DNA from: an uncultured Gammaproteobacteria bacterium
GTDB lineage: Bacteria > Patescibacteriota > Microgenomatia > Levybacterales > UBA12049
Direction of reading: 5' to 3'
DNA length: 64,000 bases
Assembly (NCBI GenBank): GCA_964521295.1
Contig: CAZFRF010000001.1
Location: 774,738-838,737 of the forward strand
The position numbers were made by a program, and so were the translations under genes. Shown piece by piece: positions 21,390 to 24,300 of the stretch; within the stretch, counting starts at the first letter, position 1; every line of letters begins with the position of its first letter. Under the pieces are notes generated by a model. That model saw only the letters and a list, made by a program, of their open reading frames with translations, had not been told where the DNA came from and searched no databases.

Positions 21390-24300
21390 AAGAATCTTTT
21401 AATCTATATATAATGCCAATAATGGATGCCTAGGAGGCTTTGACCGAGGAAAGACGCAGACGGCGGCGATACTCGTCGGGGAGGTGCCATCAACCTTCGA
21501 TCCGGCGGTTTCTGAATAGGGAAACCTACTGCATTTGCAGTGGCCAAACAGGAATAAACTTTCGTAAGAAAGTTAATAGCGTTTGGCGGGGTACGGCGTG
21601 AACTGAAACATCTTAGTAACGCCAGGAATATAAATCATTTGAGATTCCGTCAGTAGCGGCGAGCGAAAGCGGAAGAGTCTAAACTACTCGTAAGGGTAGG
21701 GTTGCAGGGCAGACGATATTCGATTAAGTTAAGGTAGCAGAAGAACCCGGAATGGTTCTCCACAGAGCGTGATAGGCGTGTATGCGAAACTTTAGCTTAC
21801 GATAGTTTGTTCCTAAGTACCATGGGGTACGATAAAACCCTGTGGGAATCTGGGGCGGCCACGCTCCAAGACTAAATATCAAAGTCTACCGATAGTGAAC
21901 TAGTACCGCGAGGGAAAGGTGAAAAGCACCCCGGAAGGGGAATGAAATAGATCTGAAATTGTTGGCTGACAAGCAGACAGAGTGCGAGTAATCGTATAAT
22001 GTCGTGCCTATTGAAGAATGAACCGGTGAGTTTTTGATTACAGCGTTGGCTTAACCAAGTATATCTTGGGGAGGCAAAGTGAAAGCGTGCCCTAACTGGG
22101 CGATTAGTTGTAATCATTAGACCCGAAACTAGGTGAGCTAACCTTGAGCAGGTTGAATGTTTACGAAAGTAAACAGGAGGACCGAACCCGTGGCCGCAGC
22201 AATGGCTTGGGATGACTTGAGGTTAGGGGCAATATGCCAAACGAACCTAGAGATAGCTGGTTCTCCCCGAAATATATTTTGGTATAGCGGTCGTTTATTG
22301 TGTTATCGAGGTAGAGCACTGAATGGTTTTCTAGGGCGCAAGTCCTAGACACTAATCAAACTCCGAATGCGGTAACTCTTATGCGGCTAGTCAGACATGT
22401 CGGGCTAAGCTGATGTGTCAAAAGGGAAACAGCCCAGACTCCCATCTAAGGCCTCTAAATAATAGCTAAGTTTTGAACGAAGTCAAGTTTCATAGACAAC
22501 CAGGAAGTTGGCTTAGAAGCAGCCATCTTTTAAAGAAAGCGTAACAGCTCACTGGAGGATGATACTTGGCGCGGAAAATTTATCGAGGATCAAGCTATTT
22601 GCCGAAGTTGGAGAATTTGTAAAAATTGGTAGGGGAGCGTTCTATTTGCCTTGAAGCTGAACTGTAAGGTTTGGTGGAGCGGATAGAAGTGAGAATGCCG
22701 GTATGAGTAGCGAGAGCAAGGTTAGAATCCTTGCCGCCGAAAATCCAAGGTTTCCTCCGCAATGTAAGTCAGCGGAGGGTTAGTCGGTCCTAAGGGTGTG
22801 CCTTGTTAAAGAGGTGTAACTTAATGGACAAGTCGTTGAAATTCGACTACAGAGTATGAATATTCTGAGGGAAGGACGAAAATGGAAGAGTCAAGCCTCC
22901 TACGGAGGTCTAAGCAGTAAGATAGTGGTAACTGGTAAATCCGTTACTGTGTTTAATTAAGCTGCGAATGAGTGTGATTTCGCAAGAAGTCAAATTTGAT
23001 AGCTTTCAGTTTCCGAGAAAAATTTCATCAGGTTATCGTAAGATAACAAAATTTATATTTTACCGTACCGTAAACCGACACAGGTGGATTGGTCGAGAAG
23101 ACTAAGGCGATCGAGAGAAAAATGTTCAAGGAACTCGGCAATAAAGCTAGGCGTAACCTTTGGGAGATGCCTTGCCACGATTAGTTTCGTGGTTGCAACA
23201 AATGTTTATTTACCGACTGTTTATCTAAAACACAGGTCCCTGCAAAGCTGAAAAGCAAAGTATAGGGGCTGACACCTGCCCAGTGCTGGTAAGTCAAGTA
23301 TGGAGAGTGAAGTGCCCTCGGGTATCAGCTTTTTTTACAAGCTCCAGTAAACGGCAGCAGTAACTATAACTGTTCTATGGTAGCGAAGTTCCTTGTCGGG
23401 CGAGTTCCGACCCGCACGAAAGGCAGAACGAGTGAATAACTGTCTTGAACATTTACTCGGCGAAATTGAGATGGCTGTGAAGACGCGGCCTAATTGTACA
23501 TGGACAAAAAGACCCCGGGAGCTTTACTGTATCTTGGCATTTGAAAGTTTATTTTAACTGTTTAGAATAGGAGGGAGCTTTGGCGAAATATGAAATACCT
23601 CTCTTTAGAGTAAGCAATCATTACCCCTAGCCGCACAAAAATTCGGCAGAGGGACAGTGTCTGGTGGGCAGTTTAACTGGGGCGATTGACTCCTACAATG
23701 CAACGGAGTCGTATAAAGGTTGGCTAATCACGGATGGAAATCGTGATGATAGTGCAAACGCATAAGCCAGCTTGACTGCGAGACCTACAAGTCGAGCAGG
23801 TAGGAAACTAGATGTTAGTGATCCTGTGATGCCTAGTGGTAGGCACACAGCTTAACGGATAAAAGCTACCCCGGGGATAACAGGCTGATCGCATCCAAGC
23901 GTCCACAGCGACGATGCGGTTTGGCACCTTATGTAATTTACATCGGGGCGCCTAAGAAGAAATTCTTAAGCTTGGTTATTCGAAAGAACGCATATTAGAG
24001 AGTGCGTTGGAATAATAAATTTACTAGTCAAAATCGGTGAACTCCAACAGTTAGTTGGACAATACCGAGGGAAGTCCGATTTATCGGACCCCGTATCGAC
24101 TGGATTCCCAATTTATTGGGATGAAGATAGAAGTTGGTGTAGATCATGAGCTCTACATAATTTAAAACTTTTATAAAAGACTAGCTCCTCTTAATAAGAT
24201 GACAGAGGATGAAGGTATAGTCAGTGCACATGGAAACATGTCGCGATGTCGGCTCATCGCATCCTGGGGCTGGAGAAGGTCCCAAGGGTCCGGCTGTTCG

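Follow-up and report, generated by a model that had tools for sequence, protein, structure and literature searches.

The window analyzed here is a stretch of 64,000 nucleotides (nt) from an uncultured bacterium (contig CAZFRF010000001.1 of assembly GCA_964521295.1), and it carries a 23S ribosomal RNA (rRNA) gene that is interrupted in the peptidyl-transferase center (PTC). We read the interrupting sequence, at window positions 23930 to 24243, as a compact group I intron of predicted subgroup IA that contains no open reading frame (ORF) and follows U2500 in the central loop of domain V (site L2500), and we give this reading a probability of about 0.9. Direct reading of the sequence gave an insert of exactly 314 nt. 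The 5′ exon ends ...GGTTTGGCACCT at 23929 and the insert begins TATGTAATTT... (in longer form, TATGTAATTTACATCGGGGCGCC); the insert ends ...ACATGTCG at 24243 (in longer form, GCACATGGAAACATGTCG), and the 3′ exon resumes at 24244 with CGATGTCGGCTCATC. Neither boundary can be slid. An initial annotation of this DNA had proposed an insertion of about 310 nt in the PTC region, ending in G and preceded by an exon ending in U. Both terminal bases can be read directly, the U being E. coli U2500, and the insertion is real, but the proposed coordinates (23932 to 24242) were too tight, missing two bases of the insert on its 5′ side and one on its 3′ side. We take the break to lie between U2500 and C2501, using C2498, C2501, A2503, G2505, and U2506 in E. 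coli numbering. The site belongs to the peptidyl-transferase ring, the central single-stranded loop of domain V, and the first six bases of the 3′ exon are unpaired in the Rfam LSU (large subunit) consensus (model positions 2527 to 2532).

We scanned the insert locally with the Rfam Intron_gpI model (RF00028), a check that the initial annotation had called for, and obtained a match to the full model (1 to 253) at 23984 to 24243, with 50.0 bits and an E value of 6.1e-12. The match stopped exactly on the terminal G of the insert. The minimum free energy (MFE) fold of 23923 to 24249 had −97.4 kcal/mol, compared with −72.6 ± 6.2 kcal/mol for 100 dinucleotide shuffles (z = −4.03), and this unconstrained fold recovered every nested helix that we had assigned by eye. 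The P1-to-P9 structure search, also called for, assigned P1, the core helices P3 to P9, and the P3/P7 pseudoknot, and the core folds. P1 forms from an internal guide, with a U23929·G23946 wobble at the 5′ splice site; P10 (ACAUCG/CGAUGU) adjoins P1 on the guide; and ωG24243 is the nucleotide with which the intron ends. Within P7, G24098-C24222 lies beside the bulged C24097 and is the predicted guanosine-binding pair. The layout of U24096, bulged C24097, and G24098-C24222 is the same as that of C262, A263, and G264-C311 in Tetrahymena. The Rfam alignment contains a 75-nt insertion between P7 and the 3′ strand of P3, which folds into P7.1 and a long P7.2. These helices are reportedly the hallmark of subgroup IA in the classification of Michel and Westhof, and by them the intron is placed in that subgroup.

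Relatives were analyzed by nhmmer, motif classification, and structure pair counts; the alignments had 405 to 578 columns. With 12 relatives, 86.5% of the cells were paired, against 37 to 43% in slid controls, and 45 pairs were compensatory. With 49 distinct relatives, the figures were 87.0% against 36 to 44%, and 59 of the 96 pairs were compensatory (601 cells). None of 500 shuffles reached the observed value in either alignment. Deriving the structure from the window sequence somewhat inflates the fraction of paired cells and has a smaller effect on the compensatory counts and slid controls. Across the 49 relatives, P2, P3, P8, and P9 were 96 to 100% paired, with several pair types, and P10 was paired in 92.8% of cells, a C/U alternation giving C-G or U·G pairs. 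Three features, namely the terminal ωG, the wobble pair of P1, and the guanosine-binding G-C pair, were invariant in at least 14 species genomes and at least 66 metagenome contigs that carry the subfamily at this site. From these patterns the ribozyme is under purifying selection on its structure. The initial annotation had suggested a degenerate or minimal group I intron. Given compensatory substitutions in dozens of relatives and a complete core, "degenerate" does not apply, and the element is instead compact, conserved, and ORF-less; the assignment to group I itself was borne out by the Rfam model, the P1-to-P10 anatomy, and the covariation. Every sequence determinant for group I splicing is present and conserved.

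Several points weigh against this reading. The score of 50.0 bits equals the gathering threshold (50), and the intron went unlisted in a gathering scan of the whole window. Within P1 there is an A·C mismatch. Pairing is poor (54 to 61%) in P7.1 and at the P7.2 tip, probably through MAFFT misalignment of the variable hairpin loops. P1, P4, and P7 never vary across the relatives, so covariation neither supports nor contradicts them. The host taxon follows solely from 81 to 84% 23S identity to metagenome-assembled genomes (MAGs) of Levybacteria, and we infer splicing itself, with its catalysis and its occurrence in vivo, as well as the mode of spread.

The predicted mechanism is the canonical two-step group I chemistry. 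The guide GGGCGCC (23946 to 23952) would pair with the exon end GGCACCU to form P1, with U23929·G23946 marking the 5′ splice site. This site would be attacked by a free guanosine that P7 binds at G24098-C24222. ACAUCG (23940 to 23945) would then pair with CGAUGU of the 3′ exon to form P10, ωG24243 would occupy this pocket instead of the cofactor, and the 3′-OH released on U2500 would attack the 3′ splice site. Exon ligation would restore the universal GGCACCU-CGAUGUCGG.

The intron might be genuine and yet non-autonomous, needing a host or trans-acting protein (a LAGLIDADG maturase-like protein or an RNA chaperone) in the cell, as many organellar IA introns do. It is AT rich (38% GC in the Rfam match), its P1 is mismatched, it has no P9.1/P9.2 extension of the kind kept by several relatives, and other L2500 introns encode LAGLIDADG_2 proteins. 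Organellar members of that family can act as maturases. We nevertheless think such a dependence rather unlikely: the core is complete, GNRA loops on P2 and P9 are available for tertiary docking, no LAGLIDADG ORF was found in or beside the intron, and Patescibacterial IA introns in transfer RNA (tRNA) genes self-splice without protein (PMC13011429).

We also weighed whether the insert might be an intervening sequence (IVS) or expansion segment, either retained in mature 23S rRNA or excised by RNase III with no joining of the ends, so that the 23S would be in fragments. Bacterial 23S genes, including those of the candidate phyla radiation (CPR), do carry IVSs processed by RNase III, but the known ones are simple hairpins replacing helix tips (sites 23IS2 and 23IS4) (PMC11270868), whereas this insert sits in the unpaired PTC loop. 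Rather than a simple extended hairpin at a helix tip, without a ribozyme core, we found a multidomain group I fold with a conserved core, a guide that serves both exons, a U·G wobble, and ωG, none of which selection would favor in an IVS. What is known of the PTC makes retention of a 314-nt insert implausible, since the site is a universally conserved, unpaired loop of the catalytic center. We therefore regard an IVS or expansion segment as exceedingly improbable.

A decayed, nonsplicing intron in a dead copy of the rRNA gene, or an assembly chimera, would account for the missing ORF, the borderline Rfam score, and the absence of a 16S gene from the window. Against this, the exons of the 23S gene match the whole model with 2229.8 bits, the 5S and tRNA-Ala genes are normally ordered, and the same intron occupies the same site, with compensatory substitutions, in at least 80 independent assemblies, which makes decay or chimerism very improbable. 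Group II intron, IVS, expansion segment, and pseudogene were all rejected as identities of the insert, as was a twintron or IStron, the insert having no ORFs.

The host 23S gene lies at 21401 to 24645 on the forward strand and matches the Rfam model LSU_rRNA_bacteria (RF02541) over its full length (1 to 2925; 2229.8 bits). Its 3,245 nt against a 2,925-position model imply that the 314-nt insert is the sole large insertion, and the exons match the whole model. For annotation, this means an intact 23S gene with a mature length of 2,931 nt. An Rfam scan gave the locus order tRNA-Ala(UGC) (21224 to 21297), 23S (21401 to 24645), and 5S rRNA (24699 to 24812); neither 16S rRNA nor tRNA-Ile was found anywhere in the 64-kb window, and the 16S and 23S genes are therefore unlinked. 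The genes neighboring the 23S gene are bacterial. The 23S exons were 81 to 84% identical over 1.9 to 2.5 kb to Levybacteria/Levyibacteriota MAGs, the best long matches among the at least 119 fetched loci with L2500 insertions, and the host is probably a CPR bacterium. When eight neighboring proteins were searched by tblastn against all fetched loci, related neighborhoods appeared on metagenome contigs only. A look-up of exact protein matches gave a single 1.2-kb Logan contig, from run SRR14271340, in which the organism is present.

The ORF list contained nothing longer than 39 amino acids (aa) inside the insert, the longest internal ORFs being 39 and 36 aa, and so, as the initial annotation had stated, there is no intron-encoded homing endonuclease within it. 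The 60-aa ORF at 24199 to 24381, which it had dismissed as spurious, spans the border between intron and 3′ exon within the rRNA and has no Pfam match; it should be left out of the annotation. Lacking an endonuclease gene, the intron is unable to home by itself. We conjecture that it persists by vertical descent, possibly with mobilization in trans or reverse splicing. Among 15 subfamily members, the pairwise identity of the intron correlated weakly with that of the flanking exons: with the 3′ exon, Spearman rho was 0.18 (P = 0.085), and with the 5′ exon it was 0.12 (P = 0.26). These values are confounded by extra introns in some of the exons.

We scanned species-representative genomes for a non-T base directly before CGATGTCGGCTC.TC.CATCCTGGGG and found at least 119 loci. 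In these species genomes (at least 119), a non-T base preceded C2501, nearly always by insertion, and an insert of more than 100 nt at exactly L2500 could be delimited in 100 of the loci. Most of the L2500 inserts were 250 to 550 nt long, with a second group of about 800 to 870 nt. Among the matches listed, the hosts were mainly Patescibacteria/CPR; others were Planctomycetota, Actinomycetota, Chloroflexota, Omnitrophota, MAGs labeled Gammaproteobacteria, and one Coxiella endosymbiont. No fewer than three sequence families share L2500, and LAGLIDADG_2 genes occur in some of these only. Among uncultured bacteria, L2500 is an intron site in heavy use, which agrees with what has been published on CPR rRNA introns, adds slightly to it, and holds nothing that would surprise a specialist. 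Two loci had no intron. A Planctomycetota MAG (L033, position 2541) had a single extra A between U2500 and C2501, and in a Cloacimonadota MAG (L063, around position 1989) an A replaced U2500 (GGCACCA followed by CGATG). Both may be genuine variants of the PTC or errors of assembly.

Guide sequence and nhmmer score put the window intron in a distinct subfamily that has the guide GGGGCGCC and is present in at least 14 species genomes, mostly Levybacteria. Seven of these are named Levybacteria/Levyibacteriota (L035, L047, L061, L068, L086, L106, and L114), and seven are other genomes (L001, L031, L049, L069, L091, L112, and L116). The best matches to the window intron, among those listed, were L068 (77% over 11 to 312), L035 (74%), and L116 (90% over 1 to 116). 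A metagenome scan with the P4′-P6-P7 motif of the subfamily returned at least 120 contigs, at least 66 of them with both L2500 exon flanks. All 66 flanked introns were 300 to 485 nt long, ended in G, and had the same guide; the full set of 80 members (14 genomes and 66 contigs) kept this length range and was ORF-less. The U-A pair of P7 beyond the bulge is replaced by A-U in other L2500 families. About 20 metagenome motif matches were apparently chance matches in GC-rich coding DNA, and a viral contig with the core motif (L121) was likewise rejected as a chance match, having no transfer-messenger RNA (tmRNA) or rRNA context and no J8/7 motif.

The mismatch in P1 places C23949 opposite A23926, inside the splice-site helix. 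The other six pairs of P1 are invariant, and the mismatch is present in all 49 relatives. In each of these 49 distinct members of the subfamily, a C faces exon position A2497; in the other L2500 families, a U at this place forms an A-U pair. This fixed A·C mismatch in P1 is apparently tolerated or useful. One speculation is that the ORF-less subfamily is not a mere selfish remnant but has been kept vertically in a Levybacteria-like lineage, where splicing in the PTC loop would act as a checkpoint or timer for 50S assembly in hosts that have lost about half of the ribosome biogenesis factors; the mismatch could then make recognition of the 5′ splice site sensitive to conditions (for example, through A+·C at low pH). 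We consider this a long shot.

Brown et al. are said to have first noted, in 2015, ORF-less group I introns in CPR 23S genes. The window intron is a further member of this known class of CPR rRNA introns and falls in a definable subfamily of it. In Tsurumaki et al. 2024 (PMC11270868), 82% of 348 CPR 23S genes have insertions, 433 of the 968 insertions (45%) are group I introns (222 of these ORF-less), the introns are clustered at sites used repeatedly within the gene's 3′ half, and ORF-containing and ORF-less forms share sites. The window intron resembles these introns in host gene, clustering of sites in the 3′ domain, Rfam family, and ORF-less state, and its host 23S is most similar to Levybacteria MAGs. 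The sites named in its text are 1917, 1931, 1952, 2593, 2604, and 2657, those of 23IS9 to 23IS11 being given in figures, and the parts covered here do not describe the guide GGGGCGCC or the A·C signature in P1. The initial annotation had equated the site with the known position L2500, and this agrees with rrl_2500, an established group I site in the rrl genes of streptophyte-algal chloroplast genomes (Lemieux, Otis and Turmel 2016; PMC4877394). The chloroplast introns share the identical site after U2500 and the intron class, and they differ in having organellar hosts. A literature search found no paper pairing L2500 with a group I intron.

The ORF-containing bacterial L2500 introns (for example, L073, L065, and L006) share the site, the P1/P10 logic, and a similar core (J8/7-P7 GAAGAUAUAGUC) with the window intron. 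They belong to other subfamilies, however, are 800 to 870 nt long, and have the guide GGGGUGC, which gives A-U where the window intron has A·C. Their product, about 190 aa long, is an I-SceI-like LAGLIDADG_2 endonuclease (Pfam E value, 2e-39); its closest relatives of solved structure are I-SceI and 6x1j. The L2500 intron of the Coxiella endosymbiont of Ornithodoros amblus (L019) is 832 nt long; its endonuclease gene is apparently decaying, since the longest open frame is only 68 aa. The classical bacterial 23S group I introns, on which Nesbo and Doolittle (2003) is cited in PMC13011429, are those of Coxiella burnetii (L1917 and L1951) and of Thermotoga and Simkania (L1931). They occupy other sites, those at L1931 usually with LAGLIDADG ORFs, and are set beside the window intron by site and content.

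Patescibacteria also carry IA introns in tRNA genes (position 35/36) and in the T-loop of tmRNA genes; these share the IA architecture and are mostly ORF-less but have other host genes and guide sequences (PMC13011429). For the tRNA introns, self-splicing in vitro has been demonstrated, and a change of ωG to C blocks exon ligation (PMC13011429). T-loop group I introns of tmRNA genes contain the window intron's exact P4′-P6-P7 motif too, CAATACCGAGG...GTATCGACT, closely following GGGGTTCGATTC in these genes. The common motif implies that the rRNA L2500 subfamily and the tmRNA T-loop introns share a closely related core.

Outside the window, 35 of the 100 delimited L2500 introns, each from another species genome, ended in A instead of G (...GGAAnnAUGUA/CGAUGUC). 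CPR lineages and Planctomycetota are among their hosts. The introns have canonical exons, and their junction does not allow sliding. Position −1 was U, C, or A and position −2 was G or A; the final A alone was invariant. The two nucleotides before this A paired with the two nucleotides after P7, forming P9.0, in 34 of the 35 introns and with four pair combinations, while shifted P9.0 registers fit only 0 to 2 of the 35. The A therefore occupies the ω position (ωA). Shifted splice sites, or a G two positions upstream, were rejected as explanations: position −2 is G or A, exons joined at shifted sites would fail to regenerate the rRNA sequence, and only the terminal A suits the P9.0 register. 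In the ωA introns, the guanosine-binding G-C pair of P7 is retained, and P10 is a strong 6-bp helix. RNAalifold applied to 24 ωA and 8 ωG introns recovered the helices of a group I fold, and 38 of 65 pairs showed compensatory changes. One ωA intron (L100) scored 40.7 bits (E value, 3e-9) in Rfam. With the window intron just at the threshold (50.0 against 50) and this one below it, standard Rfam-based annotation evidently undercalls such introns. The hexacoral mitochondrial ND5-717 intron has a documented natural ωA and undergoes splicing in vivo (PMC8146996). In the part of the literature covered, we found no report of ωA in bacterial rRNA introns, the hexacoral intron being the sole precedent. 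Of the items here, the ωA family alone might surprise a specialist.

TABLE 1 Features of the intron and its host gene (window coordinates) and loci carrying related introns
Feature	Position	Strand	Support
Host 23S rRNA gene, one interruption	21401-24645	+	RF02541, 2229.8 bits, model 1-2925
5′ exon, last 7 nt GGCACCU (to U2500), P1 5′ strand	23923-23929	+	Pairs with 23946-23952; invariant in 49 relatives
Group I intron (probable), 314 nt, predicted subgroup IA, no ORF	23930-24243	+	RF00028, fold z, covariation, ORF list
P10 guide ACAUCG, complement of first 6 nt of 3′ exon	23940-23945	+	Sequence, pair counts
Internal guide sequence GGGCGCC, P1 3′ strand	23946-23952	+	U23929·G23946 wobble; A23926·C23949 mismatch
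P2 hairpin, GAAA loop	23953-23968	+	98.6% paired, 6/6 pairs compensatory
P2.1 extended hairpin (23976-81/24010-15 and 23987-93/24002-08)	23976-24015	+	80-82% paired, 10/13 compensatory; in MFE fold
P3 5′ strand CUAGUC	24024-24029	+	Pairs with 24179-24184; 99.7% paired, UA to CG in 5 sequences
P4-P5-P6 domain, A-rich J4/5 and J5/4	24034-24092	+	Sequence, pair counts
P4	24034-38/24064-68	+	Invariant
P5	24043-48/24054-59	+	91% paired, 4/6 pairs compensatory
P6 and P6a	24069-71/24090-92 and 24074-79/24084-89	+	86.5% paired, 7/9 compensatory
P7 5′ strand: U24096, bulged C24097, GACU (24098-24101)	24096-24101	+	Invariant in subfamily
P7.1 and P7.2 block, between P7 and P3′	24106-24174	+	Subgroup IA hallmark
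P7.1	24106-11/24116-21	+	P7.1 and P7.2 tip each 54-61% paired across relatives; in MFE fold
P7.2	24127-35/24166-74 and 24137-43/24152-58	+	Outer stem 87.5% paired, 8/9 compensatory; in MFE fold
P3 3′ strand GACUAG	24179-24184	+	Pairs with 24024-24029
P8 hairpin	24186-24209	+	95.9% paired, 5/6 compensatory
J8/7 UGAAGGUAU (24210-18) and P7 3′ strand AGUCA (24219-23)	24210-24223	+	Matches Rfam consensus gAAGAUAUAGUC; invariant in relatives
P9 hairpin, GAAA tetraloop	24228-24241	+	98.5% paired, 4/4 compensatory
ωG, terminal guanosine	24243	+	Rfam model end; G in 14 genome and 66 metagenome subfamily members
3′ exon, first 6 nt CGAUGU (from C2501), P10 3′ strand	24244-24249	+	Sequence, P10 pair counts
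ωA loci: L002, L009, L012, L013, L015, L020, L024, L028, L030, L032, L034, L039, L044, L048, L053, L055, L060, L062, L066, L072, L074, L078, L083, L088, L090, L093, L095, L097, L100 (1016-1310), L101, L102, L107, L109, L113, L119			
LAGLIDADG_2-encoding L2500 loci: L006, L007, L029, L034, L051, L057, L062, L065, L073, L076, L078, L080, L094, L105, L108, L110, L117			
tmRNA T-loop intron loci: L133 (about 2353-2871), L148, L153, L155, L156, L163, L178, L185, L199, L203, L217, L223, L224, and others			

Elsewhere in the window, which has about 34% GC, a single tRNA gene was detected in the 64 kb, and a NUDIX gene lies upstream of the rRNA locus. Two large ORFs are present, one of 1,236 aa at 53108 to 56818 on the reverse strand, whose product has no Pfam match at an E value of ≤0.001, and one of 2,192 aa at 40262 to 46840 on the forward strand.

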